Virus record (IMG/VR): IMGVR_UViG_3300044796_000401
Reading direction: 5' to 3' (one strand)
Source: a virus
Taxonomy: Duplodnaviria > Caudoviricetes
DNA: 64,000 bases
Both the position numbers and the translations under genes were made by a program. This document shows positions 20,443 to 43,499 of the stretch, piece by piece. Every line of letters begins with the position of its first letter. The first letter of the stretch is position 1. The notes under the pieces were generated by a model that worked only from the letters and a program-made list of their open reading frames with translations, ran no database searches and was not told the DNA's origin.

Positions 20443-20976
20443 ATGAAGCACATGCTCCTTTCGATTTTGCTTGTTTTGCTTGCTATCCCGGCGAGGGCTG
20501 ACTGCGGCCGCAAGGAGTGGCACACCCGCGTCCGTTCCATCTTGGTCCGGCTTTTTCCGAACGATGAGATGGCCAGCAATGTCCGCCTCGTCTTCATTTG
20601 TGATCCCCGCCCGGACGCCACCTACTCGAACGGCAACATGGTCATCGACTCCGGATTGATGAAGTTCAAAAGGGCCGAGATCGCCGCCGTCCTCGCCCAC
20701 GAGATGGGACACGCGAAACTGGAACAGGACATAGCCTTCGGGCTGTTCGGCGAAAGCCTCGCCGCGCTGGAAAAGGACGAAATAGATGCCGACGACTTCA
20801 GCCTCGTCACCCTGCGCCGGGCGGGATACGGCCCTTGCGATGCCTATCATGCCATGGCGAAGGCGTTGCCGTACTTTCCCAGCATTCTCAAGAATCCTAC
20901 CGGCCCGCACAACCGGATAGTCGTCCATCGCTTCGGCAGGCTCCAAGAGGCATGCAAACAGGGGGGCGTGACATGA
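20443..20976 (+). CDS. Secreted M48-family metallopeptidase
   Basis: Signal peptide; AVLAHEMGH and EIDADDFS...RAGY. Confidence 0.8.
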   Translation: MKHMLLSILLVLLAIPARADCGRKEWHTRVRSILVRLFPNDEMASNVRLVFICDPRPDATYSNGNMVIDSGLMKFKRAEIAAVLAHEMGHAKLEQDIAFGLFGESLAALEKDEIDADDFSLVTLRRAGYGPCDAYHAMAKALPYFPSILKNPTGPHNRIVVHRFGRLQEACKQGGVT

Positions 20977-24296: not shown

Positions 24297-24890
24297 GTGG
24301 GCATATTGGTTCCGATGGTGGTCGAGCAGACCAGCCGCGGCGAACGCGCCTACGACATCTATTCCCGCCTGCTGAAGGACCACATCATCTTCCTCGCGGC
24401 GGAAATCGACGACGACGTTGCCAACCTCGTGATCGCGCAGATGCTCTTCCTCGAAGCGGAAGACCCGAACCGCAGCATATCCCTCTACATCAACTCGCCG
24501 GGCGGCAGCGTCACGTCGGGGCTGGCGATCTACGACACCATGCAGTTCGTCAAGCCGAGCATCGAGACGATATGCATCGGGCAGGCGGCGAGCATGGCGG
24601 CGGTGCTGCTGGCGGGCGGCGCTCCGGGGAAGCGGCTCACCCTGCCGCACGTCCGGATCATGATCCACCAGCCGATGCTGTTCGGGCTGAGCGGACAGGC
24701 GACGGACATCGAAATCCACGCCAAGGACATCCTGCGCATAAAGAGGCGCTTGAACGAGATCATGTCGAAGCACACCGGGCAGCCGCTCGAAAAGCTGGAG
24801 AAGGACGCCGACCGGGACTTCATCATGGGCGCGGAGGAAGCGAAGGAATACGGGATCGTGGACACCATCGTCGGGAAGAAGGGCAGCTAG
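24297..24890 (+). CDS. clpP: ATP-dependent Clp protease proteolytic subunit
   Basis: [43 protein letters not shown]. Confidence 0.97.
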
Positions 24891-25179: not shown

Positions 25180-25791
25180 ATGACTTTAGAACAGAGAAGG
25201 ATTAACGCGGAAAAAGCTCTAAAGCTGTACCATGATAGGCGCTTGTCGGGAATTTGTGTGGCGTGCGGGAAGCGACCACCAATCCAAGGGGTGCTAAGAT
25301 GTGCTAGCTGCCGTAAGATACGAAAAGCCATCTCGCAAAAACAAAAGGAAAACAGACCGGAGGGGAGTTGTAGGCAATGTTTAACTCGCCCGGCAGTACC
25401 CGGATTGACTAGTTGCCAAAAATGCCGTGAACGTGGCTGTAAGAAAATGAACAATCTAACCCGTGAAACTAGACTCAAAGTTCTTGTTTTATATGGGGGA
25501 AAATGCCAGTGTCCCGGCTGTACGGTTTCAAACTTCAAATACCTGCAATTGGATCACAAAAACAACGATGGCGGTATAGAACGAAAAGCGTTGCCGCCAT
25601 CGATTCGGGGAACCAAGTTTTTTAAGCTAGTGTTGAGCCAAGAAAAGCGAAATGATTTGCAATTACTGTGTGCAAACTGCCATAATACTAAGAGGTATGG
25701 TGGTTGCACCGAGGAAGATCATGCCGGGACAAGAACGAATCCGCTACCCGAGAACCCCGCATCTGATGTGGAGCCCCGGAGCCACGTCTGA
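25180..25791 (+). CDS. HNH endonuclease with N-terminal Cys repeats
   Basis: CQCPGC...LQLDHKNNDG...LLCANCHNTK. Confidence 0.75.
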   Translation: MTLEQRRINAEKALKLYHDRRLSGICVACGKRPPIQGVLRCASCRKIRKAISQKQKENRPEGSCRQCLTRPAVPGLTSCQKCRERGCKKMNNLTRETRLKVLVLYGGKCQCPGCTVSNFKYLQLDHKNNDGGIERKALPPSIRGTKFFKLVLSQEKRNDLQLLCANCHNTKRYGGCTEEDHAGTRTNPLPENPASDVEPRSHV

Positions 25792-26383
25792 TGACCGCGT
25801 GCTGAAAACGACCGCTTCGTGGGAGGGAACGGAGGTCGTCATCACGGAAAAAATGGATGGCAGTCAGTGCACGTTATACTGTGACGGCCTGCATGGACGG
25901 TCGTTGGAGTTGGATTCGCATTGGCAATGGGACAAGCTCAAGGCGATGCATGCCGCTATGTCCCACGAAATACCCGTGGGCTGGCGCATATGCTTGGAGA
26001 ATATGACAGCCGTCCATTCCATTGAATATGACAACCTGCCTTCGCTATTTTTAGTTTTTTCCACTTGGGACCGAGACAATATTTGCCTTGGCTGGGTAGA
26101 AACAACCGAATGGTGCGCGTTACTGGACTTAACGCCTGTTCCGGTGCTTTACCAAGGACTGTATACCGATGATGCTTGCAAAGCGCTCTGTGATTCGCTG
26201 GACACAAATCACCAAGAGGGGTTGGTTGTACGCCCTGCAAACCGTTTTCACTTTGACCGATTCAGCGTTCTGACTGGAAAGTGGGTCAGAAAAAACCATG
26301 TGCGGACTTCTGACCATTGGAAAGAACAGCCACCACGGTACAACCGGACCCGGCATATCGAATTCAACGAGGTGCAAGAATGA
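25697..26383 (+). CDS. RNA ligase (Rnl2-like nucleotidyltransferase)
   Basis: YPRTPHL.WSPGATSDD, TEKMDG, EGLVVR, KWVR..HV.T..HW. Confidence 0.8.
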   Translation: MVVAPRKIMPGQERIRYPRTPHLMWSPGATSDDRVLKTTASWEGTEVVITEKMDGSQCTLYCDGLHGRSLELDSHWQWDKLKAMHAAMSHEIPVGWRICLENMTAVHSIEYDNLPSLFLVFSTWDRDNICLGWVETTEWCALLDLTPVPVLYQGLYTDDACKALCDSLDTNHQEGLVVRPANRFHFDRFSVLTGKWVRKNHVRTSDHWKEQPPRYNRTRHIEFNEVQE

Positions 26384-27756: not shown

Positions 27757-28266
27757 ATGGCGCAGGTTAGCTGGCAGAACTGCGACGGAATTCCCACCAG
27801 ATTCAACTGGGTGTTGTCCCCGGAGCGCGTCGTATTGTACCCGATTACCCACTTGATGTCCGGGCGGTCGGTGACGCCGTTTGTCACCGTTTCCACCGTG
27901 GGACTCGATGGGTACGGAGAACCCGTCCCGGTGCAGGACAATGCCTTGCTCGGCTTCGGGGCTGCGGACCTGAACAGGGCCATCGACCTCATCCTCAGCA
28001 CCAAGCACGACAGGGAAAAGAACATCGTCACGGATGTCGATCTTGCGGGCCTCGGGTTCAAGCCCGAGATTTACGACGAATGCAGCATCCGCATACGGCT
28101 GGAGTACTCCGACTTTTCCGATGATGAATGGAAAGCCGGAAGATCGGCCTCCCTTGCCCGGCTCCTGGCTTCCGAACGCATCTTCGTCACCCCGGATTTC
28201 CTCCAGTTCGAGGCCCCGGCGAGGGAGAACATGCGCCGGGAACTCAACGATTTGACCCTGAAATAA
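27757..28266 (+). CDS. Hypothetical protein
   Basis: 169-aa ORF with AGG upstream. Confidence 0.5.
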   Translation: MAQVSWQNCDGIPTRFNWVLSPERVVLYPITHLMSGRSVTPFVTVSTVGLDGYGEPVPVQDNALLGFGAADLNRAIDLILSTKHDREKNIVTDVDLAGLGFKPEIYDECSIRIRLEYSDFSDDEWKAGRSASLARLLASERIFVTPDFLQFEAPARENMRRELNDLTLK

Positions 28267-28346
28267 GCCATTTCCACCCCCCGATCCCGACAGTGCGGAG
28301 CGAATCGCCTTTGCGATCCCTTAGGAAGAGGCGTCAGTGCCGCTCC

Positions 28347-29519
28347 ATGCCGACCACAGGGACCAAAAGAATGAAGACCGGGACGAAGCAGCAGCTTGAT
28401 CCGAGCCGCCGCAGCACAGAAGCGAAGGACTTCGAAGCCAATCTCCGCAGCAGGATCGTGGGGCAGGATGCCGCGATCGAAAAAATGGTCGAGGTGTACC
28501 AGGTTTTCCTGGCCGGGTTGAATCCCGTGGGACGCCCTGTCGGCAATCTTCTCTTCCTTGGACCCACCGGCTCCGGCAAAACGCGCATCGTCGAATCCAC
28601 CGCGGAAATCCTGTTCGGCGATTCCCACGCCATGATCAAGATCGACTGCGCGGAATTCCAGCACTCCCACGAGATCGCGAAACTCATCGGCTCGCCCCCC
28701 GGCTACCTCGGGCACCGGGAAACCCACCCGCTCATCACGCAGGAGGAACTGAGCAAATACCACACCGACAAGCTGAAGCTCTCCGTCCTGCTTTTCGACG
28801 AGATCGAAAAAGCGTCCGATGCGCTGTGGCAACTGCTCCTCGGCATCTTGGACAAGGCCACGCTCACCCTCGGCGACAACCGCCGCGTCGATCTCAGCCA
28901 ATGCATCATCGTCATGACATCCAACCTCGGCAGCGGCAGCATGATCCAGATTCAGGAGGGCGGCGGGATGGGCTTCACGATTGGCAAGCCCGTCGTGGAC
29001 GAAAAATTCGATACCCGGATCAACGACTCGGCGATCAACGCCGCCCGCAGGAAGTTCACGCCGGAGTTCATGAACCGGATCGACAAGGTTGTCGTCTTCA
29101 ACACGCTCCGCGACGAGCACCTGCGGCAGATTCTCGACATCGAGCTTGGCATATTGCAGCAGCGGGTGCTCGCCGCGCAGGGGAACAACCACTTCGTCTT
29201 CTCCTGCACGCGGGCGGTCAAGGACAAGATTCTGGCCGAGGGCACGGACGTGAAGTACGGTGCCCGCCACCTGAAGCGGGTGATCGAGCGCAGCCTCACC
29301 TTCCCGCTGGCGAACCTCGTGGCGACCGGGCAGATCAAGCTCGGGGACATAGTCAGGATCGACCTGAACGACCAAATGGAGCTTGTGTTCACTAGGGAGG
29401 CCGAGGGGGCGCTGATCCCGATCCTCCTCGAAAAATGCGGATCGCCGACGGGTTCGCAGAATCCGGCCCCGGTAGCGCCGTCGCCCGTCGCGGCGGTAGC
29501 GCCGAGGCGCAAGAAATAG
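28347..29519 (+). CDS. Single-domain ClpB/ClpA-type AAA+ ATPase (D2 domain only)
   Basis: RIVGQ, LFLGPTGSGKT, IDCAEFQHSHEIAKLIGSPPGYLG, LFDEIEKA, MTSNLG, PEFMNRID, GARHLKR. Confidence 0.9.
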   Translation: MPTTGTKRMKTGTKQQLDPSRRSTEAKDFEANLRSRIVGQDAAIEKMVEVYQVFLAGLNPVGRPVGNLLFLGPTGSGKTRIVESTAEILFGDSHAMIKIDCAEFQHSHEIAKLIGSPPGYLGHRETHPLITQEELSKYHTDKLKLSVLLFDEIEKASDALWQLLLGILDKATLTLGDNRRVDLSQCIIVMTSNLGSGSMIQIQEGGGMGFTIGKPVVDEKFDTRINDSAINAARRKFTPEFMNRIDKVVVFNTLRDEHLRQILDIELGILQQRVLAAQGNNHFVFSCTRAVKDKILAEGTDVKYGARHLKRVIERSLTFPLANLVATGQIKLGDIVRIDLNDQMELVFTREAEGALIPILLEKCGSPTGSQNPAPVAPSPVAAVAPRRKK

Positions 29520-29919: not shown

Positions 29920-30651
29920 ATGGATTCCATAACCTTTTTGACCCCGAATGACCTTTGTTGGCCCCTCGGCGTGCAAGACACGACGCCGCAGTACACCTTC
30001 GGCTCGGGCACCCACCAGCGCAGCCTCAAGGTCGATCCGTATCCCGCCTACCCGCATGATCTGGAGCTTGTGGAAAGAACCCTCGGCCATTGCATGGATG
30101 TCTTCCCCCTCAAGGCTGCCAAGTTCGGGCTGTGGGTGCTGAGCCACGACCTGATCGACAGGATAAACGGGCTCACCTACGAGGATTACGAGTATTACCG
30201 GGAGGACGGCTCCGACTGGGAGGACATGATCCCCCGCTACGACGGCTCCGGCGAGATGCGCAAGTTCTACGGGCAGGCGATCAGCATCGCGCTGGCGGCC
30301 AAGCGCGTTCCTATTCATCCGGCGATGACCCGCTACCTCGTGTCCCACGAATACGGGCACGCCGCCTTCTATGCCGTCGCACGAGCCATGGGCTACAAGG
30401 ACAGCGAGAGGGACAAGCTGGAAGCGAAGTACATGGAGCTTCGGGGAATCGAGGATTACGCCAAGAAATACCGGGGCGGCGACTGGCACCGCAACCCCGG
30501 AGAGATCATCGCCAACGATTTCCGCATATTATTCACAAAGCAAGAAATGGAGTTCTGGCCCCACGACTGTTGTCCGCTTCCGGCATGGTCCCAGCCCGAG
30601 GGGAAGTGGTGGCGGGAAGCGGCTGAGTTGTGCGGGGTGGCACTTAGATGA
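29920..30651 (+). CDS. Zincin-like metallopeptidase
   Basis: VSHEYGH plus downstream EIIANDF. Confidence 0.5.
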   Translation: MDSITFLTPNDLCWPLGVQDTTPQYTFGSGTHQRSLKVDPYPAYPHDLELVERTLGHCMDVFPLKAAKFGLWVLSHDLIDRINGLTYEDYEYYREDGSDWEDMIPRYDGSGEMRKFYGQAISIALAAKRVPIHPAMTRYLVSHEYGHAAFYAVARAMGYKDSERDKLEAKYMELRGIEDYAKKYRGGDWHRNPGEIIANDFRILFTKQEMEFWPHDCCPLPAWSQPEGKWWREAAELCGVALR

Positions 30652-31337
30652 CATCGGGACGAACATACGAGGTTTTCGTGGACGGCAAGCCTGCGGGGCT
30701 TGTGGGGAGCACCGTGAAGACCTTGGAACAGCGCCGGAAAAACAAGTACCCCAAACGATTCGGTTCCACGGTAGAGCTTCGCCTTATCCGGGAAATCCCT
30801 CGTCCGGAAGGCTATTTGGACTTTGACTACAACTTTTACCTCAAGGCCTGCGAGGCGATGGACATCGCGAGGAAAAAGACCTATGTAGAAGACGGGGGAC
30901 TCAACAGGATATCCCCGTTGATTCAAGCACTAGGACACCCGATGCTTGAAAGAGAAATGGGGCGGATAGGCGGACGTACGGCTGCACGTAAGAATATAGA
31001 AAGCGGACAGGTTGCTAAGATTGCTACCTATGAATCCCGCGCTAAAGGTGGACGTACAGGCAGTCGCAAGCACAACGAGCTTTATGGCAACCCAGCCACT
31101 TCTGAGGGGCGTGCTAAAGCCGGGCGCACAAACATAGAGAGCGGGCAAGTTCTAAAACTTGGATACAAGCAAGGACGCAAAAACGCTGAGAGCGGATATA
31201 TTCAAGCCCTCGGGCACAAGCAGGGATGTAAGAACGCCAAGAATGGGCATCTTGCTCGCATTCGTCATATCCGTTGGCATGTCAACCGGAATCTCAATAA
31301 TCCGAATTGCGAACTGTGCAGAAAACACGAGGGATAA
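30648..31337 (+). CDS. GIY-YIG-like homing endonuclease with GRKN.ESG repeats
   Basis: YEV...VGST...R, ...E..I...T..GGLN pattern; C-terminal repeats and HIRWH...CELC. Confidence 0.5.
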   Translation: MTSGRTYEVFVDGKPAGLVGSTVKTLEQRRKNKYPKRFGSTVELRLIREIPRPEGYLDFDYNFYLKACEAMDIARKKTYVEDGGLNRISPLIQALGHPMLEREMGRIGGRTAARKNIESGQVAKIATYESRAKGGRTGSRKHNELYGNPATSEGRAKAGRTNIESGQVLKLGYKQGRKNAESGYIQALGHKQGCKNAKNGHLARIRHIRWHVNRNLNNPNCELCRKHEG

Positions 31338-31610: not shown

Positions 31611-32921
31611 TTATTCTTCGAGGAAAATCGGTGTGGACATCGTTTTCGCGTTCCAACGTTTGTTCACGAGAAAAAACGCTTGGGTGGGTGGCTCAAAGCT
31701 GGCTTTGATGCTCACGGCGAAATCATTGTAGCCGATAAGCGATCCGTTGCATATGAAGTTTCCGGTGTTGATGTACTGGTGGTAGTGCCCGAATACGTCG
31801 AGGTTCACGTCGCGGACGGCTTGGTTCCAGTTGGCGATTGCCCTGTTCGCCGGGATCGTGATGCCGCCTATGCCCCCGCTGTACCTAATGGCGTGCCCGT
31901 GGTGCCAGCGGATGACGTAGCTGTCGTCAAACAAGCGGGTGAATGTGTGGTAGCCTTCGCCGATCTGCCACTGGATGCGCTTCTCGCCGTCGAAGTAGCG
32001 GCGGAGATGGTGGTACATCCAATACTCCAAGGAATTCCCGGCTTCTGTCGTGATCATCCGCTTCTTGGTGGTGCGGGCGTGATTGCCGGAATGACAAGGA
32101 ATGAGGAATCGAGTGTCCGGGTCCGTGTTTTCCAGCATGAACTTAAGGCCGCTGACAAGCTGATCTTCCGCGTGCTGGATGGCCTCCATCGGAAGGAGCA
32201 AGTTGCTGGCCGCTGCATCCTCGTGGATGTTGTTCGTGATGAAGTCGCCCAGCAGCGCGATGATGACCTGCTTGATGGCGGTGTCCCGCTTGAGGATATC
32301 AATCAAGCGAAGAGCCCCCTGCCAGAACCGTGCGACACGCGCAGCGCCGATCTCAAGGTTAAACTCGTTAAGACCCGCTACGTGCGTGTTGATGACCTCT
32401 TCCTCAAGGTGCCAGTCGGAAGCGACAACACACGCCACGGACTCGCTGGTGCTGGACGGCGTACGTGGGGCAAGTATGGTGACTTGGGGCGTGTATTGCC
32501 CGAGGGACACAGCGGCTTCCAGTTCTTTTTCAAGCTTAATGATGCGCGTGGCCGCTACTTTTAGCTGTCCCTTGGCGTCCTCTTGCTTGGCCTTGATCTT
32601 CTCTTTTTCCAGATCAAGCTTCAATTCCGGGGTTAACTTTGGTTCAATCGGCGTGGGTGCCTTCGGTTCTGGGGTCAAATCGGCTGCCTCGCACCCGGCC
32701 TCCTTCACCAGATCGCTGAACTTCGGGAAGTAAAGGGAAATGGCCTTGTCGGCGAATTTGCCCTGCTGGCGGTAGAAATCGCGGGTGATTACGGCGTTTG
32801 GAAAGCTCTTGCGGATACTGCGTATGTCATTCAGGAGTTGCTCACGGGAAGCGGTGGCCCTTTTGTGGCCCTCCGCTGTCCTTGACTGGGGTTTCTTAGA
32901 CAAAGTGGACGTTCCCTCCAA
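31611..32921 (-). CDS. Metallophosphoesterase with N-terminal helical/coiled-coil region
   Basis: SDWH, LGDFI, GNH, HHGH, GHYH. Confidence 0.8.
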   Translation of the reverse strand: MEGTSTLSKKPQSRTAEGHKRATASREQLLNDIRSIRKSFPNAVITRDFYRQQGKFADKAISLYFPKFSDLVKEAGCEAADLTPEPKAPTPIEPKLTPELKLDLEKEKIKAKQEDAKGQLKVAATRIIKLEKELEAAVSLGQYTPQVTILAPRTPSSTSESVACVVASDWHLEEEVINTHVAGLNEFNLEIGAARVARFWQGALRLIDILKRDTAIKQVIIALLGDFITNNIHEDAAASNLLLPMEAIQHAEDQLVSGLKFMLENTDPDTRFLIPCHSGNHARTTKKRMITTEAGNSLEYWMYHHLRRYFDGEKRIQWQIGEGYHTFTRLFDDSYVIRWHHGHAIRYSGGIGGITIPANRAIANWNQAVRDVNLDVFGHYHQYINTGNFICNGSLIGYNDFAVSIKASFEPPTQAFFLVNKRWNAKTMSTPIFLEE

Positions 32922-33119: not shown

Positions 33120-33824
33120 ATGGAGCTATCTAGTAGGCGCATCAAAAATCTGGCGGGGCGAACAATGGGCTGCTGGGCCGTGCTGGATTGTGCGGGCAAC
33201 AACAAGCACGGGCAAGCCATGTGGAACTGCCGATGCGGATGCGGGCTTGAACGGGTCGTGCGGGGGGGTCGGCTTTTGGGGGGTCGGAGCATTTCCCGTG
33301 GCTGCGAGAAAATCAGCAGCCTCACCGGACGCAAATTCGGTAAATTGCTGGTTCTACAGCGGCTTCCCGCTTCATCCGCAAGACAGTCTGTTTGGCTCTG
33401 CCGCTGCGATTGTGGCGAAAAAGGCGCTGTTCATGGCACCAATTTATTGAGAAACCTAGTTAAAAGCTGCGGCTGTTTACGCCGTGAAATCACGCAAGCT
33501 CGAATGACTGGGCCTTCCAATCCCGGCTGGAGGGGAGGCATAACCCCTGAAGTCCAACGGATTAGAAACCATCGAAAAACGAGAAACTGGAAACGATCCG
33601 TATTTAAGCGGGACAACTTTACTTGCCAAAAGTGCAATGTCCGTGGCGGACGATTGGAAGCCGACCGCCACCCAAGGCCGTTTCGAAGCTTGGTCGTGGA
33701 AATCACAGGGTTGTACGGCACAGCCAATCTACACGAAAAGGCGCTGGAATACGCCCCGATGTGGGATATCGACAACGGCCGAACACTATGCTATGAATGC
33801 CACGGAGGAAAATCAAATGCTTAA
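33120..33824 (+). CDS. HNH homing endonuclease with Cys-rich N-terminal repeats
   Basis: GRKFGKL..WLCRCDCG..SCGC; WRGG; CQKC...RTLCYECH. Confidence 0.75.
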   Translation: MELSSRRIKNLAGRTMGCWAVLDCAGNNKHGQAMWNCRCGCGLERVVRGGRLLGGRSISRGCEKISSLTGRKFGKLLVLQRLPASSARQSVWLCRCDCGEKGAVHGTNLLRNLVKSCGCLRREITQARMTGPSNPGWRGGITPEVQRIRNHRKTRNWKRSVFKRDNFTCQKCNVRGGRLEADRHPRPFRSLVVEITGLYGTANLHEKALEYAPMWDIDNGRTLCYECHGGKSNA

Positions 33825-35397
33825 ATCGGCCGATAAACTACCAAATATGCACAGCACGGAGGTTCGTGGATTGCCGATAGTCATTCAATGGCCTCGCGGC
33901 AGCATCCGGGTGGGCAAGCGCGAAGACGGCACCGAATTCAAGTCAGAGATGAAGTCAGATTACGGTTATGTGCCCGGAACGACGGACGCCGATAATGATG
34001 GCCGTATTGATGTGTACATCGGGCCGGACGAAAAAGCCGAATATGCCTATGCGGTTGAACAACTCAAGGATGACGGCTCGTTCGACGAATACAAAGTCAT
34101 GTTGAATTTCTCCTCTTTGGAAGACGCCGAGGAAATATACGCCGTCCATGCGGGGGAGGACCGCCTCGGGGAGATTCAGGAAATCCCGTTCGACGAGTTC
34201 GCCGAACAGGTTCAGGCCCACCAAAAAACACGGACACCGGATCGCCAAGAAAAACTGGAAGAAAAGACCGCCGGGGAGCACGCCCTGATCGAGGCTTACG
34301 TAAAAAATTATGCCCATGAAATTGACTTCTATGAAGAGGTCGCCCATCTTGCACAAGACAAGCTCGACTCCGCCTTGCAGGACGGGGGCATCAAGGCGGT
34401 CGTGTCATCCCGTGCAAAACGCCCCAGCCGCCTAGAAAAGAAGCTCCTCAAGCGCGAGTCGGAGAAAGGCTACAAGACCTTCCGCAATATTACCGACGAC
34501 ATCGTGGACCTCGCGGGATGCCGCGTGGCGCTCTATATGCCCAAAGACCGCGAAGAGGTGGGGGCGATCATCCAAGAACTGTTCACCGAGGTCCGCCCGA
34601 CCAAACACTTTCCCGAGGATAGGGGGCCGGGAGACTCCCTCGGCTATGTCGCCGACCACTATTTGGTGAAGCTCAAGCCCGAAGCCCTGCGGAAGAAAGA
34701 ATTCCGGTATGCCGACACGCAGGTCGAGATACAAGTGGCGAGCGTGCTGATGGCCGCTTGGGCTGAAGTTTGTCACGACCTCATCTACAAGCCGGAGAAG
34801 GGCAAGCTGACTCCCGCGGAAATGAGCCTGCTCAAGGACCTGAACGACATCGTGCAAATGGGCGAGCAGCAGCTTGAGAAGCTCCAGAACGCCATCGAGC
34901 ACCGCACGTCGGAAGACCTGAGGTTCGACATCGTGGCGACGCTGGAGAAGCTCGCCAAGATCGGCCGCGGCGACGTGGAAGAGTTCAGGTTGCAGGCGGG
35001 CAAGATCGCAGCCGGATTTAACCCCAAGGACATCTGGCGCTACGGCGGCTGGCTCCTTTCCAATACGAATGTCGTGCCTTCGGTGGGGAACGAGAAGACG
35101 GCTTTGGATAACGGCGCGGCGAAATTCGACCTTGACATGTCCGGGGCGATGGTGATCGAGCGCAAGGGTGGCGACCGCCACGCGGAAGCCCGCCTTATGG
35201 ACTTCATCAAGAAATTCCCCCCGCCCGAAACTCTTCTCCTGAAGTTCAAAAGCGTCGGCGCGGAAGAGGATGCCGCAAAGCTTCTGAAGGACCTCGGCGT
35301 CACTGCTGCGGCTCCGACACAGCCCGCCAAGAGCCAATGGGCATCGTACTTGAAAGCCCGGCTGGCGATGATCAAGTCCGGCAGAAACCCCCAGTAA
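33817..35397 (+). CDS. Polyvalent protein: inorganic-pyrophosphatase-like domain plus RelA/SpoT nucleotidyltransferase
   Basis: DYGYVPGTTDADNDGRIDVYIG..EYKVM; SRAKR...KKL, DLAGCRV, GYVADHYLV, VEIQVASVLMAAWAEVCHDLIYK. Confidence 0.85.
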   Translation: MLKSADKLPNMHSTEVRGLPIVIQWPRGSIRVGKREDGTEFKSEMKSDYGYVPGTTDADNDGRIDVYIGPDEKAEYAYAVEQLKDDGSFDEYKVMLNFSSLEDAEEIYAVHAGEDRLGEIQEIPFDEFAEQVQAHQKTRTPDRQEKLEEKTAGEHALIEAYVKNYAHEIDFYEEVAHLAQDKLDSALQDGGIKAVVSSRAKRPSRLEKKLLKRESEKGYKTFRNITDDIVDLAGCRVALYMPKDREEVGAIIQELFTEVRPTKHFPEDRGPGDSLGYVADHYLVKLKPEALRKKEFRYADTQVEIQVASVLMAAWAEVCHDLIYKPEKGKLTPAEMSLLKDLNDIVQMGEQQLEKLQNAIEHRTSEDLRFDIVATLEKLAKIGRGDVEEFRLQAGKIAAGFNPKDIWRYGGWLLSNTNVVPSVGNEKTALDNGAAKFDLDMSGAMVIERKGGDRHAEARLMDFIKKFPPPETLLLKFKSVGAEEDAAKLLKDLGVTAAAPTQPAKSQWASYLKARLAMIKSGRNPQ

Positions 35398-35460: not shown

Positions 35461-38439
35461 GTGGAATCATCATTGCTCAAATCCGCCATCAGTGTCGCAC
35501 CCGAGAACGGAAAAATCGCCAAGACCACGGCCAAGCATGCCAGCACGCAAATCAACCTCCCGGAGGAACTGGCCGAGAAGCTACGGGAAGCCGTGCGGGA
35601 GGTCATCCCGGAGTCCGACCTCATGGCTGACGGCTACGAGGAAAATTTGCACGTGACGACCAAATACGGGGTTAAAGAGTCCGAAGACGACCTCGTCAAA
35701 GCGGTTGCCGGGCAAGCTGCGTTCGTCGTCGAGTTGGGCAAGACGCACGTCTTCGACCCGAGCGAGTCCAGCGACGGCGCGGCCCCGGTAGCGGTCTTGG
35801 TCGATGCTCCCGAGCTTCACGAACTGCATACGGCTATCGACAAGGCCATGGGCGTCAAGGAAGACAGCTTTCCGGACTACTTACCGCACGTTTGTTTGGC
35901 GTACGTCAAGCCCGAGGCCGCGAGCAAGTACGAAGGCTTGGACATCTTCAAAGGCATCGCCTTCGAGGCCGACAGCATCACCATCTCGAAGAAGGACAGG
36001 GTTTGCGTCGCCGTGCCGTTCGGGAAGGCCAAGACGGCGGCGAGCGACAGGGGAAGCTGCGTGACTCTGGCAGCCGATGCGGAGGGATTCCCGCCCGCGG
36101 TGGTCGTCCGCTTTCCGCAGCGCGGCATGCAGTGGCGTCAGGTGCTCAAGATTGTAAAACAAATTGTCGGAGAGGTCGCCGGGAAGCGCGTCCCTTGGAG
36201 AGACATCCGTATCTTCGAAAACCCGTGGGGCGGATACGCCGAACAGCAAGAGAGATTCCCCGAATGGGCGGCCAAGCAGAAACTCGTGATGTACGACATC
36301 ATGCCCGACGGGTCGTTCCAATCGGTCGGGAAGCCCCATGCCCCGCTTGCGATCCAAGGCAGCCACAAGACCCCGCCGCTCTCCGACACCGTGTACGAGA
36401 ACCCGGAAATCGGGCAGGAGACCAATGCCTATGCCGACATCCCGGAGCGCGTGAAGGGCGTCGAAGCCCTTCCGACTCTGGAGGAACTTGCGCCGGAGAT
36501 GTTCGAAAAGAAGGCAGCCGGATTTCCATCCTTGGAAGAAGTGCTCGAATACGGCGGCGGCAGCGTCGAAAGCGTGGTCAACGACCTCGTGGACTGGGAA
36601 CCGCTCCGCAAAAAGGTAAAGAATTTACCTGAAGCCGAGCAGGAAACCGCCCTCAACAAGCTGGGCTTGAAGGAGGTCACCCGGCGTTGGAAACAAGTCA
36701 ATGCGCTCATGCAATCGCACAAATTCCCGCTCACCGTCTACCGCGGCGTTTGCGCGAACAGCGCGAAAGAGGTCGTCACCGATCCCGATTTCGTGTCCAA
36801 GGAAAGCATAACGGGACGTGGGCTGGGGGTCTATTGGGCATACGACGAAGATAGCGCCTACCTGAGCAAGGAGCTTCTCCACAATTGTCCGGCGTGGGGC
36901 AAGAAGGGCATCATCATGTTCCGCGCCGTCATCTCCGATCCCTCCAAGGTGGATTGGCTGCATACGGCTTGGACAAACCTTGCGGCGGAGGACGAGAAAG
37001 AAGTCCATCTGGTCAAGGGCGCTCGAATCCAAGTCACGGGCGTGAAGAAATATGGCGAGACCACATGGCGCAATCCGCCTCCGAGGTTCCGCAGCGTGAC
37101 CGCCGTCTTCGCCGAGGCGCAGAACCAAGTGCAGCACACCGACCACAAGCCGGTCGGCATGTACAAGACCCCCAAGCGCGACCCGTTCCAAGAGGAATGG
37201 GATTTGTTCGCTCCGAAGGACGAGCCCGAGGCGCAGGAGCCGGAGACGAACGCCCCCATGACGCCGGGCGGGGAGATCAAGAGCCTTTTGAACAAGGCTG
37301 CCGCCAAGGCAACCTACGTGACGCTGTGGGATTTGGTGAATATCGCTGGCGGGCCGCTCCGCATCAAGAACCAGTGCAAGACCCCCGAGGAGGCGCTGGC
37401 ATTGCTCAACGACACCCACGCGAAATACCTCAGGAACTTGCGGACGAAATTCATCGGCATGCATGTGGTTCCCGAAGATCCGTCAAGGATCGCCGCTTGG
37501 GTCGAGCAGCTGTATTCCGAAAACAAAAAGACTGCCGCGCCGCTTCACGATGAAGCGAAGCAAAAGACATATTATCATGGCACCGATGAAGAAGCTCGGG
37601 CTCAAGCCATTCTCAAAGAGGGCATCCAGCCCCGCGAAATTATCCTGCCAAACAAAGCCAAGAGCCGGGCGATGCAAGCTCCGGTGCCGGATCGTGTTTA
37701 TCTGACTGACAGCTTTGGTTATGCCGCGATTTACGCCTTGGGCGGTCAAGCGTTCGGAATGGGGCTCAGCGACCGGACGAAAACCAATTATACCGCCGAC
37801 ATGTGGCTCAAGAATCACATCAAGGCGGGAGAATACGGATACATTTTCGAGGTGCGGGGAGCCGACCTCGCCGGGGATGTGGTGCCTGACGAGGATAGCA
37901 TCGGCGAAGCCCTCGCGTGGATGATCGACTACAAAAAGGATACGCGCAGGCTGGAAGAGCTTGAGACCCAGCCCGAACGCTGGAAGGGCGAGAAGGAAGG
38001 CTTGCAGCGCGGCTTGAAGGCCGTCATGGAGCAGCCGATCGCCAAAGCCCCGGAAGACATTCAAAACCGGCTTGCCTGGCTCAAGACTTACCTGACACCG
38101 GCGCAACTGGACCGCATCGACGAAGCGGCCGTGCAGTCGCAGGTCGGCAAAAAGCTCCAGAAGCGGCTGCCGCCCGATGTCGCCGAATGGCTTCTCGACC
38201 ACGGGGCTCACGTTGCGCACCAAGGCCCCGTATTCCCGGATCGCTGCTGGCGCTTCGGCAAGAAAGACGCCCTATATACCACAGACTTGCAAAGCATCCT
38301 GCAAGAAGTCCCCATTCGGAAGATAGCCGCGGCACAGCCAGTCGCCCCCGTGTATTTCTACATAGAAGTGCCGCGCTGGGCTCGGGAACGCTTCTGTCGC
38401 CTTCACCACATTGAAGAGAAGGACAAATACGATGTTTGA
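35461..38439 (+). CDS. Polyvalent protein: 2H phosphoesterase plus two ADP-ribosyltransferase-like domains
   Basis: LHVTTKYG / PHVCLAY (paired HxT/C motifs); VYRGV..GVYW..EKEV; YYHGT..ILKEGI..VYLT...YIFEV. Confidence 0.75.
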   Translation: MESSLLKSAISVAPENGKIAKTTAKHASTQINLPEELAEKLREAVREVIPESDLMADGYEENLHVTTKYGVKESEDDLVKAVAGQAAFVVELGKTHVFDPSESSDGAAPVAVLVDAPELHELHTAIDKAMGVKEDSFPDYLPHVCLAYVKPEAASKYEGLDIFKGIAFEADSITISKKDRVCVAVPFGKAKTAASDRGSCVTLAADAEGFPPAVVVRFPQRGMQWRQVLKIVKQIVGEVAGKRVPWRDIRIFENPWGGYAEQQERFPEWAAKQKLVMYDIMPDGSFQSVGKPHAPLAIQGSHKTPPLSDTVYENPEIGQETNAYADIPERVKGVEALPTLEELAPEMFEKKAAGFPSLEEVLEYGGGSVESVVNDLVDWEPLRKKVKNLPEAEQETALNKLGLKEVTRRWKQVNALMQSHKFPLTVYRGVCANSAKEVVTDPDFVSKESITGRGLGVYWAYDEDSAYLSKELLHNCPAWGKKGIIMFRAVISDPSKVDWLHTAWTNLAAEDEKEVHLVKGARIQVTGVKKYGETTWRNPPPRFRSVTAVFAEAQNQVQHTDHKPVGMYKTPKRDPFQEEWDLFAPKDEPEAQEPETNAPMTPGGEIKSLLNKAAAKATYVTLWDLVNIAGGPLRIKNQCKTPEEALALLNDTHAKYLRNLRTKFIGMHVVPEDPSRIAAWVEQLYSENKKTAAPLHDEAKQKTYYHGTDEEARAQAILKEGIQPREIILPNKAKSRAMQAPVPDRVYLTDSFGYAAIYALGGQAFGMGLSDRTKTNYTADMWLKNHIKAGEYGYIFEVRGADLAGDVVPDEDSIGEALAWMIDYKKDTRRLEELETQPERWKGEKEGLQRGLKAVMEQPIAKAPEDIQNRLAWLKTYLTPAQLDRIDEAAVQSQVGKKLQKRLPPDVAEWLLDHGAHVAHQGPVFPDRCWRFGKKDALYTTDLQSILQEVPIRKIAAAQPVAPVYFYIEVPRWARERFCRLHHIEEKDKYDV

Positions 38440-39316
38440 TGATGCCGTCCTCTGCCAGAAAAACGTTGTTTACTGTTTTCGTAACAAGATAACAGGTAAA
38501 GTGTATATAGGAAAAACTGTTAAGTCCATGCGGACACGCTGGAAAACCCATCATTGGCATGCTTTTTCAAATAATAGCCCCGCCTTCTTCCATCGGGCGC
38601 TGCGTAAATATGGAGAAGAAGCATTTGAACTTAGCATCCTCGCAACCGCCACTACCAATGATGAACTTTGTCGTTTGGAAAAGAAGTACATTCAAGAACT
38701 GCAAGCTGATAACGCGGATACTGGATACAACCTCACGTCTGGAGGAGAAGGAAGCATTGGATACCATCCGAGTAAAGAGACACGTTTGAAGCTCAGCCGA
38801 GCAACGTCTGGGACTAGAAACCCGAATTATGGCAAAGCCAGTGTTTGGAGGGGAAAACCCCTGCCGTTGGCCGCCAAGATAAAATTAAGCATAGCCAATT
38901 CCGGCTCCTCTCATCCGTTGCACGGTCAACAATTCTCAGAGGATAAAATTGGGGCATTTAAGAGCCTCTTGGGGGGAGTAAAGCAAAAACAAAGAAAGGT
39001 GAAATACGCCCCGTCTGAAGAAACTCGCAGAAAAATCAGCCTCGCTAATCGGGGAAAAGTGAAACAAGCACCGTCTGAAGAAACGCGTAGGAAGATCAGC
39101 CTCGCTAACCGAGGCAAAGTTAGGTCGGAAGAATCACGCCAACGCTATCGTGAATCAAAAACTGGGGCAAAGAACCCGCAGTTTGGAAAGCCCGGCACGA
39201 AGCGGGGCACAAAATGGATACACCAAGAATCGGGAAAAGCAAAGATGGTACCCTTAAATGAAGTGCCAGAATCTTTGAATGCGGGCTGGCTGCTTGGTAT
39301 GGGAGCAAGGTCATGA
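38432..39316 (+). CDS. GIY-YIG homing endonuclease with NUMOD3 repeats
   Basis: VVYCFRNKITGKVYIGKT...R, LE..YI, GYNLT.GGEG; SEETRRKIS repeats (60-bp period at 39011/39071). Confidence 0.9.
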   Translation: MFDDAVLCQKNVVYCFRNKITGKVYIGKTVKSMRTRWKTHHWHAFSNNSPAFFHRALRKYGEEAFELSILATATTNDELCRLEKKYIQELQADNADTGYNLTSGGEGSIGYHPSKETRLKLSRATSGTRNPNYGKASVWRGKPLPLAAKIKLSIANSGSSHPLHGQQFSEDKIGAFKSLLGGVKQKQRKVKYAPSEETRRKISLANRGKVKQAPSEETRRKISLANRGKVRSEESRQRYRESKTGAKNPQFGKPGTKRGTKWIHQESGKAKMVPLNEVPESLNAGWLLGMGARS

Positions 39317-39683: not shown

Positions 39684-40928
39684 CTCCCAATTGTTGTTAA
39701 TAAGGGTGGTCAACCCATCAAGTTGTGATCGAAGAGTGGAAACTTCATGCTTGTCCTTCAGCCGCCAGAGGGCGGTGCGTGGGAAACACAGGTACACGGG
39801 GGGCGAAGGCCCCCTACGACTAGGGGTTAGACAGACGGAATTTGGGAGTAATTGGGGGGCTAGGCGGCGGCTTTGATCAGACCGGCGGCGATGCAGAGGG
39901 CGCACTTCGCACTGGGCTTGGGGAGATAGAACTTGCCGCTGCGAGAGTAGCCGTTGACATGCCAATGAAGGTGGTTGGACATACGACCAGCTTGGGAAGA
40001 AATCTTCTGAAGATGCCCGTTCTCAACATTATTACGCCCGTTCCGTCGTGCCGCCGCTCTTGTTTGTGGTAAATCTTGAAGGGCTTGTATCTGACCCCTT
40101 TCCGCCGCCTCACACCCGCTCTTAAGACCGCCCCTGCGACTGTCTTCTGTCCTCTGCTTTAATGTACGCCCAAACAATCCTGTTTTGTTTTTGAAGTTCT
40201 TGCGACCTTGAGTGCGGCCGTTTTTTCGTTGCGCTTCTTTTGTTTGCGGCAAGTTGCGGATGCGGTCCCATTCACCACTTTCCACAATTTGACGGCCCCG
40301 AATGGGACCTTGAATGAGCCCAGCTTTACGCCCATCTTCCGACATCTTTTCAGGTGTACGTCCACAAAAACCTGTCTTGTTTTTTGCATTGCTGCGACCA
40401 CCAGCCCGAGGACCTATACCAACCCGAAACTCAAGTTCAAGCAGTTCGACATCGGTGTACGTGTGCGGCCTGCCAACGGCCTTGTCCAGCCCCAGAGAGA
40501 ACCACAGTTTCCGCGACTTTCCAAGTTTTACATGGTTGCACCGGCAGTGCACCGCCTTCAAATTCATCGGCGCGTTGGCTAACGCAATAGCTTCCTCGAT
40601 GGGCAAATCGGACTTTGCGATCCATATGACGGGGATGCTATGATCAAGAGCCGCCAAGATCAAATCCTGAATCCCCTCCCCGCACAGGTCGCACAGCCGC
40701 CGCTGGTTCTTATAGCACGCTTCGAGGAGATCGGGCGTTGCGTTGCGGATAAGCTTGGCGCGTGTTTTGATTTCGGCCTTGGTCATGACGTTGTCCTACC
40801 TATAGGATACGGCCAAAAATGGTAAATCGGCTATCCGTAAGTGGCTGATTATCATAGGTTTGGATAGTGGGCCTAGTTGTCCGAGGTTACTCCCAATTGT
40901 TGTTAATAAGGGTGGTCAACCCATCAAG
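39684..40928. repeat. 39-bp exact direct repeat (39684-39722 and 40890-40928) flanking an HNH gene
   Basis: CTCCCAATTGTTGTTAATAAGGGTGGTCAACCCATCAAG in both places; encodes the LDGLTTLINNNWE end of ORF 40887. Confidence 0.9.
39860..40786 (-). CDS. HNH endonuclease with GRKN/GRNN repeats and C-terminal H-H-C-C finger
   Basis: CDLCG...LDHSIP...NLKAVHCRCNHVK. Confidence 0.75.
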   Translation of the reverse strand: MTKAEIKTRAKLIRNATPDLLEACYKNQRRLCDLCGEGIQDLILAALDHSIPVIWIAKSDLPIEEAIALANAPMNLKAVHCRCNHVKLGKSRKLWFSLGLDKAVGRPHTYTDVELLELEFRVGIGPRAGGRSNAKNKTGFCGRTPEKMSEDGRKAGLIQGPIRGRQIVESGEWDRIRNLPQTKEAQRKNGRTQGRKNFKNKTGLFGRTLKQRTEDSRRGGLKSGCEAAERGQIQALQDLPQTRAAARRNGRNNVENGHLQKISSQAGRMSNHLHWHVNGYSRSGKFYLPKPSAKCALCIAAGLIKAAA

Positions 40929-41339
40929 GTCAGTTACCGAGCGCATTTTAGAACGGGGGGTAATTTGCTCTTGTAGCCAACGGATGGAGCAAGGCTTTTG
41001 ACCCCCGCCACCGTGAACAACATAGGTAGGAATACCCGTCTTTTTTATGTTTTCGTGAAGGAAAACAAACTTTTCGTCCACTGAACCTTTGCTTTTTTGA
41101 TATTTGCATTCGATGCACTTCTTGCTGCCGTCTCGCTCCGTTATCAAAATATCCACGTGCCGCTTAGACCCGTAGACGGTTTCCCCGACATAAACATGCC
41201 GCTGAAAGGTTTTTTCTCCCGCAACGGGGGGCTGTTCCTTATAGCCGTTTTCCTCCAAGAGAGGCACGATTTGCCTTTCGAGAATCCGCCCGTTTTTGTT
41301 GGCTTCCCCTCCTGATGTTCGTTTTTTATTTCTTGGCAT
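40887..41339 (-). CDS. PD-(D/E)XK restriction-endonuclease-like protein
   Basis: G..LE..I, VDILI, IECKYQ...GSVDEK; AGGAGG RBS; overlaps the MTase 3' end. Confidence 0.7.
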   Translation of the reverse strand: MPRNKKRTSGGEANKNGRILERQIVPLLEENGYKEQPPVAGEKTFQRHVYVGETVYGSKRHVDILITERDGSKKCIECKYQKSKGSVDEKFVFLHENIKKTGIPTYVVHGGGGQKPCSIRWLQEQITPRSKMRSVTDLDGLTTLINNNWE

Positions 41340-42000
41340 GGTCAATCCTCCTGAGTTGTTGTTGCGCGAACTTGACGTACACCGGGTCCATCTCAAAACC
41401 CAAGTATTGACGATTGAGATTTTTGGCGGCGAGTAAGACCGTTCCGCTGCCAGCGAAGGGGTCACAAACCAAATCCCCCTCATTCGTGGTTAAAATGATG
41501 ATTCTCCGTGCAAGTTCATACGGGATGGGGCATGGGTGGGGGTTTTCTTTTTTGCTGACATTCTTGACTTGATTGATCTCCCACCAATCATATAGCTTGC
41601 AGGCTTTGCCCTCCGCGATGCGCTTGGCGATGCGTTTGTCCGTGGGGTTTTTGTAGGGCTGTGTGATCCTGCGCATATCGGGCTTGCAGTTAAACCATGT
41701 GATTGAGCGATGCTGCTTTGCGGTGTTCGACGGATAGACCCAAGCAACCGACTGCTCCGCTTGTCCGAGTAAGCCGCCGCCCAAAAGATTGATGGTCTCT
41801 TCCGGGTAGTGTATGACAACAGATTTCCTGTCTTTGAAAGCCGCCGCCAGCAATTGGCGGTATTCCTGTAAGGCCAAAGAGTCTCCATACTCGGCGTAGT
41901 GGTACCCTTGGTTATACGGCGGATCGGAGATAATGTAAGCATCGGGAGGAACGTCAGCCATCAACTTTTGGCAGTCACCGAGTACGATTCTGTTTATCAT
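41326..42000 (-). CDS. DNA N6-adenine/N4-cytosine methyltransferase (beta class)
   Basis: GDC, DPPY, HPCPIP, DPFAGSGT. Confidence 0.9.
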   Translation of the reverse strand: MINRIVLGDCQKLMADVPPDAYIISDPPYNQGYHYAEYGDSLALQEYRQLLAAAFKDRKSVVIHYPEETINLLGGGLLGQAEQSVAWVYPSNTAKQHRSITWFNCKPDMRRITQPYKNPTDKRIAKRIAEGKACKLYDWWEINQVKNVSKKENPHPCPIPYELARRIIILTTNEGDLVCDPFAGSGTVLLAAKNLNRQYLGFEMDPVYVKFAQQQLRRIDHAKK

Positions 42001-42335
42001 CACGAGTTTCCTTCCACGGCGTCAAACCAAGTCTTGCCTTGGGTCAACCGCTCGTAAGTGATTCTGCAACCTGCGACCGCATCCACGAAACTGTCAAGCC
42101 GCTCCCACGTATGCCCGCCAACGTTCCCCGCGTTGAGCCTGAACGCAAACTCGTCCACATATCGCCCGAGATGCTTCTTGCTAGCGTGGTGGTAGACTCC
42201 GTGAAGTCCCCGCTTCATCACGGCCCACACGCTCTCAATACCGTTCGTGTGGACATTCCCACGAACATATTCATCCTTGATGTGCGAGACCGTCTGGACT
42301 TCATAGCCGAGGATCATCGCTTCCCCAACTCGCAC
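42000..42335 (-). pseudogene. IS1595-family (ISXO2-like) transposase, C-terminal fragment
   Basis: TVSH..EYVRGNVHTNGIESVWAVMKRGLHGVYHH.S.KHL.RYVDEFAFRLN; N-terminus absent. Confidence 0.85.
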
Positions 42336-42690: not shown

Positions 42691-43499
42691 CCTATAACCC
42701 CTTGAAAATCAGATATTTGGGGGAAGACTACTCGGATTCCGCAACGGTAAGCCCGCCAAGGCTGCCGGATTTCGGTTTTTTCCATGTTTCGGGATGCTTC
42801 AAGTCGGCGTGGTCTGGACTGGGGCGGAACCGTCCTTTGGACCAAACTATGAAAGGGCACGTTTCCCCGGCTTTTCCTTCGAGCACGAAGTCAGCGAATT
42901 CCCAGTACCAAGGCTGGTTGTCGGGAATTGGGTATTCTCGCCATGAAAGGAGGTTTTCAATTTCGTTAAAGAACGATTCGGCCTTAAGCTGGTCGCCTCC
43001 CGCCAGCCTGAGAAATTCCTCGGCGATATCTAGAAGGCGCTTGGCGTTGCAGTTGTACAGGCTCGGTTCGAGCTTTTTACCGGGCATGCTCGTCTCGCAA
43101 AGCCTTCAAATATTCTTTGAACGCTTGAAGCCTCTGCGTCGAGCCTTGGGGATGGGCAAAAGCCGCGGCGAACAGTTCTTGGGACTTGCGGCGTGCGGGA
43201 ATCTTCATTGCCGCCTCATGGGCGGAAAACACGGTTTGGTTGGCTTCCGCTACGGCTTGTTTTGGCTGTGCGCCCATGCCGTCCATCTTAGTGGAGTTCT
43301 TCTGTTTTGTCAAATGCTTCTTCCATGCCTTTTCGGCAGCTTGCAGCACGGATTCCATTGTTTCAGGAGATGCCATGGTTTGCCCTCTGTTATGGGTTTT
43401 ATAGTCGTCTAATACTGAAAAATCAGCCGCTTGGATGTTGTTTTAGGCTGGCTTTCCAAATCCCGTCTATCCGAGCCCTTTAGGTAGGGAGGCCGACCG

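Follow-up and report, generated by a model that had tools for sequence, protein, structure and literature searches.

The fusion gene

The window analysed here, the whole 64,000-nucleotide stretch of the virus record IMGVR_UViG_3300044796_000401 (Duplodnaviria; Caudoviricetes), contains a gene for a 526-residue protein (P0001) in which an InPase domain precedes a RelA/SpoT-type synthetase domain of the small alarmone synthetase (SAS) kind (Table 1). An earlier reading, made from the sequence alone, had placed the two domains in a single open reading frame (ORF). This was borne out, as InPase and RelA_SpoT both scored above their Pfam cut-offs and the predicted folds agreed with both assignments. 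The fusion gene is confirmed as real, and its two-domain reading lies far beyond chance.

The frame is open from 33637 to 35397 (586 codons). The gene start was placed at the ATG at 33817, since GGAGGA lies 8 nt upstream of it and the N-termini of the homologues align at that methionine. All homologues begin there with M-x-K-T-A-D-K-L-P, which in P0001 reads MLKSADKLP. The part of the frame that lies 5′ of this ATG is the 3′ end of an HNH gene, read in another frame.

Table 1. Positions in the window of the fusion gene, its parts and its neighbours.
Feature	Position	Strand	Remarks
Coding sequence of the InPase-RelA/SpoT fusion protein P0001	33817..35397	+	526 aa; stop codon 35395-35397
InPase domain, minimal family I pyrophosphatase-like OB fold	33850..34230	+	aa 12-138; PF18823
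Disordered inter-domain linker	34231..34278	+	aa 139-154; contains K150-T-A152; pLDDT <50 at aa 143-151
RelA/SpoT-type synthetase (SAS) domain	34279..34911	+	aa 155-365; PF04607; RelQ/RelP fold match
Lineage-specific C-terminal tail	34912..35394	+	aa 366-526; third K-T-A at aa 427-429
Shine-Dalgarno sequence GGAGGA	33803..33808	+	8 nt 5′ of the ATG; read from the letters
HNH homing endonuclease	33120..33824	+	overlaps the fusion start by 8 nt; phrog_374, E 9e-30
Exonuclease, conserved divergent neighbour	31611..32921	-	436 aa; phrog_284, E 3e-30
Multi-domain protein with N-terminal 2H/Acb1-like phosphoesterase	35461..38439	+	992 aa; PF13563, PF23474

An AlphaFold model of P0001, built on 64 homologues, had a per-residue confidence (predicted local distance difference test, pLDDT) mostly above 90 for residues 12-138 and 155-362. 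Disorder was predicted at residues 1-5, 143-151 and 416-430, and confidence was low from residue 365 onwards.

The synthetase domain

The RelA_SpoT family (PF04607) matched residues 198-327 with an E value of 1.4e-9 and 38.6 bits, against a gathering cut-off of 27. When the predicted model was compared with all representative PDB chains using VIA-align, the closest folds were RelQ of Bacillus subtilis (Z 17.6, root mean square deviation 2.7, 182 aligned residues), RelP of Staphylococcus aureus (16.9) and RelP of B. subtilis (16.1). Lower matches were obtained to Rel (13.7), CapRel (11.2), an exported Streptomyces SAS (11.1), Tas1 (9.8) and FaRel (7.2). Foldseek gave TM scores of 0.77-0.79 for RelQ and RelP. 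On the predicted model, this ranking favours a RelQ/RelP-like nucleotide synthetase. NCBIfam returned only RelQ, far below its cut-off, and PADLOC only a weak PDC-S33 match (E 7e-7); neither was used for assignment.

To map the residues, the domain was aligned to RelQ and RelP with HMMER and, with MAFFT, to CapRel-SJ46 and two further SAS of phages; the roles of the residues were taken from published work (PMC7983052, PMC11782079). R199 and R236 map to the two arginines that sandwich the ATP adenine, K201 and K209 to the phosphate lysines, D231 and E304 to the Mg2+ ligands and Y277 to the G-loop tyrosine. The Syn1 and Syn2 residues correspond to R241, K243, K251, D264 and R269 of RelP/RelSeq and to R64, K66, K74, R77 and D90 of FaRel2. 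Across 64 relatives (55 fused and 9 unfused), the invariant positions included R199, K201, K209, R213, D228, D231, G234, R236, Y277 and A279, as well as H281, E304, Q306, A308, S309, H320, D321, Y324 and K325. In Syn3, G276, the G-loop tyrosine Y277 and the histidine that follows (H281) were invariant or nearly so. The sequence-only reading had set degenerate catalytic residues beforehand as the finding that would speak against it; all donor and metal residues of the synthetase proved to be intact, and invariant in the 64 sequences. The ratio of nonsynonymous to synonymous substitution rates (dN/dS) against L002, an 83%-identical relative, was 0.11, indicating purifying selection. Judged by its residues, the domain is probably catalytically competent.

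The motifs next to the acceptor differ from those of described enzymes. The Syn3 motif GY[R/K]SxH becomes GY[V/I/T]AxH in the clade, with an invariant Ala279 in place of Ser. The Syn4 motif E-x-Q-x-R-T becomes EIQVAS, with an invariant A308-S309 in place of the R-T that is retained in CapRel, a mycobacterial prophage SAS, a Vibrio inovirus SAS, RelQ and RelP. Apk2-type (p)ppApp synthetases are active without the Syn4 arginine and carry Y-H there instead (PMC12226406), so this arginine is not essential to pyrophosphotransfer. Since two basic residues beside the acceptor site have been lost, a (p)ppGpp product cannot be assumed.

The InPase domain and the tail

The InPase family (PF18823) matched residues 12-132 (E 1.7e-30, 106.1 bits, gathering cut-off 26.8). 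Five family I pyrophosphatases fitted the predicted model over residues 15-146 with Z values of 5.9-6.8 in VIA-align, and Foldseek agreed; these values are moderate though consistent, the domain having been taken within the whole-protein model. At the sequence level, the InPase part resembled (E 8e-17) the C-terminal domain of 9b41, a phage portal of solved structure. The domain also matched portals, proteins annotated as “minor head proteins” and DarB-like polyvalent proteins in more than 400 records of the phage collection.

The family consensus retains Y49, D60, E62, D65, D90 and K93, which we take to correspond to Y55, D65, D67, D70, D102 and K104 of the Escherichia coli pyrophosphatase. 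The register was supported by the pyrophosphatases 3d53 and 5tea in a weak profile alignment. In the window copy the acidic loop reads T-D-A-D-N-D-G-R-I-D, with N60 and G62 replacing the Asp and Glu of the family and Asp standing at 57, 59 and 61. This loop type is partly common to five relatives (P0005, P0048, P0062, P0069 and P0087). The L002 copy has another acidic loop type, and its InPase is far more diverged from that of the window (dN 0.22, dS saturated) than its synthetase is (dN 0.08), which suggests that InPase variants have been exchanged by recombination, giving a mosaic gene.

The tail (residues 366-526) was modelled as low-confidence helices and a small beta unit (pLDDT about 45-65). 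It had no match in Pfam or other families, its Atlas feature scores (0.76-0.78) fell within the noise range, and a homologue search restricted to it recovered near-identical proteins only. No similarity was found between the tail and either the HEPN-like tail of the bacterial relatives described below or a 207-aa ORF of the related locus L001. Its dN/dS against the L002 copy was 0.14.

Distribution of the fusion

In a search of 5.8 billion proteins, clustered at 90% identity, both Pfam domains occurred together in about 95 clusters, whose proteins are 375-745 aa long. Their sources were metagenomes of soil, peat and other origins, with contigs reaching 438-463 kb and in one case 894 kb. The architecture consisted of InPase, a linker of 7-263 aa, a 210-aa synthetase and a tail of 22-236 aa. 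Only one fused form was much longer (1422 aa, with DUF4116), and the remaining long matches shared InPase alone.

The 10-kb region had no megablast match among 50,697 phage records (GenBank phages, INPHARED release). Four weak matches, with at most 33% identity, were obtained when the synthetase domain and tail were queried by tblastn; the clade is thus not in the phage collection searched. Between 74 and 100% of the sampled words of the window DNA were present in peat and pond metagenomes from 13 studies, including three virome runs, and this presence in viromes supports a phage origin. Contigs of the metatranscriptome library X20 covered parts of the gene at 100% identity. We did not accept them as proof of transcription because, across a 9-kb stretch, they reach 28 of the 30 bins and both coding strands, and carry-over of DNA is possible.

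A bacterial sister family

A profile of the synthetase domain matched 9177 representative clusters at E ≤ 1e-3, of which 680 remained at E ≤ 1e-30. About 12 fused representatives stood at the top of the list, and below them came proteins of about 405-460 aa in which the domain is N-terminal. With the family profile, CapRel scored only 15.9 bits and the mycobacterial prophage SAS 66 bits. The bacterial proteins form a family of about 420 aa, 45-50% identical to the window synthetase domain and with an invariant EIQVAS signature. Their C-terminal 210 aa contain a nearly invariant R...H within RxxRNxxVHG and matched the HEPN toxin 7ae9, although the HEPN assignment is weak, consisting of this motif and an E value of 1e-3. 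Members include P0121 (from Kaistella antarctica), P0101 and about 130 of the sequences P0138-P0272; the family is annotated only as “GTP pyrophosphokinase”. One example was a stand-alone chromosomal gene.

In an outgroup-rooted FastTree phylogeny of 256 domains, the main fused clade comprised 90 fused sequences and four truncated calls, with weak support (0.54). It was sister to 154 unfused sequences with a joint support of 0.997, and five divergent fused sequences branched outside. No description of a RelA_SpoT-HEPN family was found in the 2013 HEPN survey. Judging from these sequences, the bacterial RelA_SpoT-HEPN-like family is seemingly both large and undescribed.

The gene neighbourhood

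The same gene order, a minus-strand gene followed by the fusion gene and by giant 2H-ART polyvalent proteins, was found in six related loci, one of them divergent (L001, L002, L003, L012 and two further metagenome contigs). The minus-strand gene encodes 405-550 aa in the relatives and in the cultured phage Tunturi_5; the copies of the window and of Tunturi_5 are annotated as exonucleases. The HNH gene upstream of the fusion is a recent insertion, because L002 and the likewise 83%-identical L003 have no gene between the exonuclease position and the fusion gene. In some loci a homing endonuclease or Prok-JAB gene lies between the fusion gene and the giant.

The giant 3′ of the fusion has 1078-3651 aa in the relatives. 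It has a 2H (Acb1-like) phosphoesterase at its start or elsewhere in the chain, and in many cases ART-PolyVal, GNAT and PARP domains as well. A second giant often follows, with ADP-ribosyl toxin, NUDIX, ParB and GNAT domains. In the window, a GIY-YIG/NUMOD3 endonuclease gene (38411-39316) overlaps the end of the 2H gene and is followed by minus-strand mobile genes at 39860-42335, including a PD-(D/E)XK nuclease (PF20472). Relatives have a giant ART polyvalent gene where the window has this minus-strand block. From the gene order, the effector cluster of the window seems to be interrupted here and to resume with a ParB-like/NUDIX protein at 43500-45590.

The fusion gene was searched for an accompanying antitoxin or immunity gene, and no conserved small partner was found beside it in the window or the six related loci. 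The intervening ORFs of the relatives are GIY-YIG-like endonucleases or Prok-JAB (JAB peptidase) genes. The 207-aa ORF of L001 and a 185-aa ORF of L012 were considered as antitoxins and rejected, as they look like GIY-YIG endonucleases; these small ORFs lie 3′ of the fusion gene, at 9260-9883 in L001 and 10194-10751 in L012. One GIY-YIG-like ORF shares an IRWHVNRN...C-x2-C tail with the window ORF at 30648-31337. Given this shared tail and the GIY-YIG ORFs of the relatives, a mobile endonuclease family appears to target the locus repeatedly. No MuF domain was matched in Pfam or PHROGs, and no downstream immunity genes were found.

InPase is, by comparison of the loci, the constant head of the first gene of the cluster and the second domain is exchangeable, since Tunturi_5 has an InPase-GP88 protein at this place. 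A constant head with an exchangeable second domain follows the logic of polymorphic and polyvalent effectors (Iyer et al. 2017, J Bacteriol, PMC5512222). The sequence-only reading had stated that both domains occur in polyvalent proteins of phages and plasmids. That this is a phage gene with two domains of that repertoire is supported by the same paper, by the presence of the DNA in viromes and by the conserved cluster.

A full ClpP protease is also encoded in the window, at 24297-24890 (PF00574, E 3.7e-82), and a ClpX/ClpB-like AAA_2 ATPase at 28128-29519 (phrog_4871, E 2e-81), which is conserved upstream of the cluster in the relatives; in L001 this ATPase has an intein-like insertion of the Hint/homing-endonuclease kind. 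A gene for a small M48-like zinc peptidase (HEMGH) lies further upstream on the plus strand (20443-20976), as does an RNA ligase (25652-26383, plus strand; PF09414, E 6e-26). An ORF of 243 aa (29920-30651) has a HEYGH zincin motif and no Pfam match, and ORFs of 242-262 aa occupy the same place in L001 and L002. By motif and position, this zincin is a candidate for the peptidase that would process the multi-domain proteins encoded nearby.

A K-[T/S]-A motif at domain boundaries

P0001 has K-[T/S]-A at residues 3, 150 and 427, in each case in a segment with pLDDT below 50. In the 55 fused proteins, linkers and termini contained 45 such motifs, against 13.3 ± 3.4 (maximum 26) in composition-preserving shuffles, while the folded domains contained one against 8.4 expected, and none occurred in 13,452 synthetase residues. 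These counts are inflated by the kinship of the proteins and are not to be read as a P value. Within the window the motif was concentrated in the fusion, 2H and ParB/NUDIX proteins and nearly absent from other genes. Two further motifs in an ORF at 42702-43412 were discounted, as this ORF looks non-coding. The giant neighbours of the relatives contain the motif 6-8 times, and in gp272 of Tunturi_5 a K-T-A lies exactly between InPase and GP88. An extended form, K-[T/S]-A-[A/G/S/D], was seen at the borders of multi-domain effectors in the window, L002, L012, L007 and Tunturi_5. The natural reading of this distribution is that K-T-A is a putative protease site for capsid-delivered polyproteins.

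Function of the fusion protein

On balance, we lean towards an active 3′-pyrophosphokinase that forms part of a polyvalent-type effector with two enzymes, encoded by a giant phage of peat and pond communities. This view draws on the identity of the two domains, a complete catalytic set, purifying selection and conservation of both the fusion and the gene order. The InPase would be a minimal family I pyrophosphatase-like phosphoanhydride hydrolase. The synthetase would hold ATP between R199 and R236, with its phosphates contacted by K201, K209 and R213, would bind Mg2+ via D231 and E304 and stack the acceptor purine on Y277, and would transfer the beta-gamma pyrophosphate of ATP to a 3′-OH. Going by these residues, the product is most likely a 3′-pyrophosphorylated purine nucleotide resembling an alarmone. 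The acceptor is not readable from the sequence, because the clade lacks the two basic residues of (p)ppGpp synthetases. The effector may act on the host early in infection, possibly after a cut at K-T-A and delivery from the capsid, like the neighbouring 2H and ADP-ribosyltransferase proteins.

The sequence-only reading had proposed a phage effector that manipulates the stringent response or excludes superinfection. Its effector part agrees with the position of the gene at the head of a polyvalent effector cluster, but the stringent response may not be the target, V278 and A308 being non-basic. Exclusion of superinfecting phages is a known role of toxin-antitoxin pairs of prophages, Phrann gp29/gp30 among them. 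Such a toxin-antitoxin model found no support here, because no antitoxin partner gene is conserved in the window or the related loci.

Several points weigh against the two-enzyme effector as we propose it. V278 and A308 stand where (p)ppGpp synthetases have basic residues, which makes plain (p)ppGpp a less likely product. Moreover, the stringent response has been reported to restrict phage T7 (bioRxiv 10.64898/2026.01.27.700999), so that a phage would have no obvious gain from producing (p)ppGpp. With N60 and G62 in its acidic loop, the hydrolase of the window copy may be weakened. The locus lies among ClpX-like ATPase, exonuclease and replication-type genes and not among head genes, and packaging is therefore suggested only by the domain repertoire and the motif. 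Finally, K-T-A could be a linker habit of the lineage and not a cleavage site.

The protein could instead target translation, as the toxic SAS CapRel, FaRel2 and PhRel2 do, and we regard this as possible though unlikely. The validated phage-borne SAS PhRel, PhRel2 and CapRel are directed at tRNA, and tRNA-directed enzymes have a smaller basic acceptor patch (PMC11782079), which would suit a clade that is non-basic at 278 and 308; an RNA ligase is also encoded in the window. However, RelQ/RelP (Z 17-18) are clearly nearer in fold than CapRel (11.2) or FaRel (7.2), CapRel matched the family profile with just 15.9 bits, and no N-terminal element dedicated to tRNA binding was identified in P0001. 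A block on tRNA would also harm translation of the phage itself. Less likely than a tRNA target is a role in counter-defence, in which a synthetase derived from the regulatory half of RelA_SpoT-HEPN would neutralise HEPN RNases, or would consume or modify a defence nucleotide, with InPase and the neighbouring 2H (Acb1-like) domain destroying related nucleotide signals. The nearest relatives of the synthetase do belong to the RelA_SpoT-HEPN-like family (45-50% identity, joint support 0.997), and an Acb1-like 2H domain starts the next gene. In HEPN/MNT pairs a nucleotidyltransferase of the Pol-beta fold neutralises HEPN by modification (PMC7641770), and InPase has been suggested to target infection-induced nucleotides (PMC5512222). 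This argument is purely associative, the HEPN assignment is weak (the motif and E 1e-3), and the tree does not settle the direction of gene transfer.

The order of a hydrolase followed by a synthetase is also that of the long RSH enzymes, and the locus lies among non-structural genes. We therefore weighed a phage-internal metabolic or regulatory enzyme, a Rel-like pair with InPase in the role of the HD hydrolase, breaking down the synthetase product and tuning a phage-made nucleotide signal during the long infection by a giant phage. The strong conservation of the fusion fits this, yet we think it improbable, and slightly more so than counter-defence: InPase is also joined to unrelated partners, both at this locus (GP88 in Tunturi_5) and in many polyvalent proteins, and hence is not dedicated to the synthetase, and the fusion gene always heads an ART/2H polyvalent cluster. 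A catalytically dead structural or scaffold protein that keeps both folds is very improbable. Syn4 departs from EIQxRT and the InPase loop of the window is off the family consensus, but the donor and metal residues are invariant across 64 sequences, about 680 representative clusters exist, dN/dS is about 0.11, and the invariance of A-S in Syn4 marks a feature of the clade and not decay.

A bolder reading can be imagined, which we consider a long shot. The EIQVAS clade would form a RelA/SpoT subfamily of its own, new and with an acceptor other than GTP, GDP or tRNA; in bacteria it would be coupled to the HEPN RNase fused to it and make up a defence module. Giant phages would have captured the synthetase half behind InPase to disarm this defence by mimicking its regulatory half, modifying or pre-empting the HEPN effector or its signal, and K-T-A would be the cleavage code of a processing protease for capsid-delivered polyproteins.

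Comparison with known systems

RelA/SpoT-type enzymes are known from the stringent response, from toxin-antitoxin and secretion systems, where they are the toxins, and from temperate phages, where they are MuF cargo. The present fusion adds a widespread version specific to giant phages. Its intact centre and two changed acceptor-side residues make a new substrate possible, and the gene order and the K-T-A motif yield a concrete model, open to testing, of how host-takeover enzymes are arranged and perhaps processed in giant soil phages.

A protein of this kind was predicted in 2017 (PMC5512222). Iyer et al. listed both InPase and RelA/SpoT as phage-type polyvalent domains, reported InPase fused to portals and thought to be injected, and proposed that InPase may target infection-induced nucleotides. 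The fusion resembles their polyvalent proteins in joining two domains of this repertoire in one phage polypeptide, and its neighbours carry 2H, ART-PolyVal, GNAT, NUDIX and ParB domains, as in the repertoire. It differs in being a separate protein of 400-750 aa instead of part of a giant chain, in having no internal peptidase domain and in a locus outside the head module. Neither a direct InPase-RelA/SpoT fusion nor an EIQVAS synthetase clade is described in the available text of PMC5512222. On the comparisons made here, the novelty lies in a free-standing protein made of the two domains, in the EIQVAS clade and the HEPN-linked bacterial family that is its sister, and in a locus conserved among giant soil phages. 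A T7 portal paper (bioRxiv 10.64898/2026.01.27.700999) was considered as a link to InPase and set aside, as it concerns binding of the portal to RelA/SpoT and is unrelated to InPase.

RelQ and RelP (PDB 5dec, 6ewz and 6fgk; Z 17.6, 16.9 and 16.1) were the best structural matches over the whole synthetase domain, including the C-terminal helices, and have all donor and catalytic residues in common with the phage protein. Sequence identity is only 17-20%, and they read GY[RK]SxH and EIQIRT where the phage protein reads GYVAxH and EIQVAS. Unlike the phage protein, they have neither an N-terminal InPase nor the unrelated tail.

RelA/SpoT-type domains are also carried by phages in MuF-Apk2 (PMC12226406) and in PhRel/Phrann gp29 and CapRel SJ46 (PMC7229694, PMC9712102). 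Apk2 resembles the fusion in placing its synthetase behind a constant N-terminal virion-associated domain and in a Syn4 without arginine. In contrast to these systems, the fusion has no MuF domain and no immunity or antitoxin gene, and belongs to a giant phage and not a prophage. The bacterial RelA_SpoT-HEPN proteins differ from it in lacking InPase and in having a HEPN-like C-terminus with an Rx4H motif; the finding also points to this large sister family.

The closest cultured relative of the locus is that of the jumbo phage Tunturi_5 (PP885688.1; 308 kb, host Acidobacteriota). Its gene order is exonuclease (minus strand), Prok-JAB, gp272 (InPase-GP88) and gp273, a NUDIX-ART-GNAT protein of 1489 aa. 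The InPase of gp272 is 43% identical to that of the window, and its second domain is GP88 (PF17338) and not RelA_SpoT.

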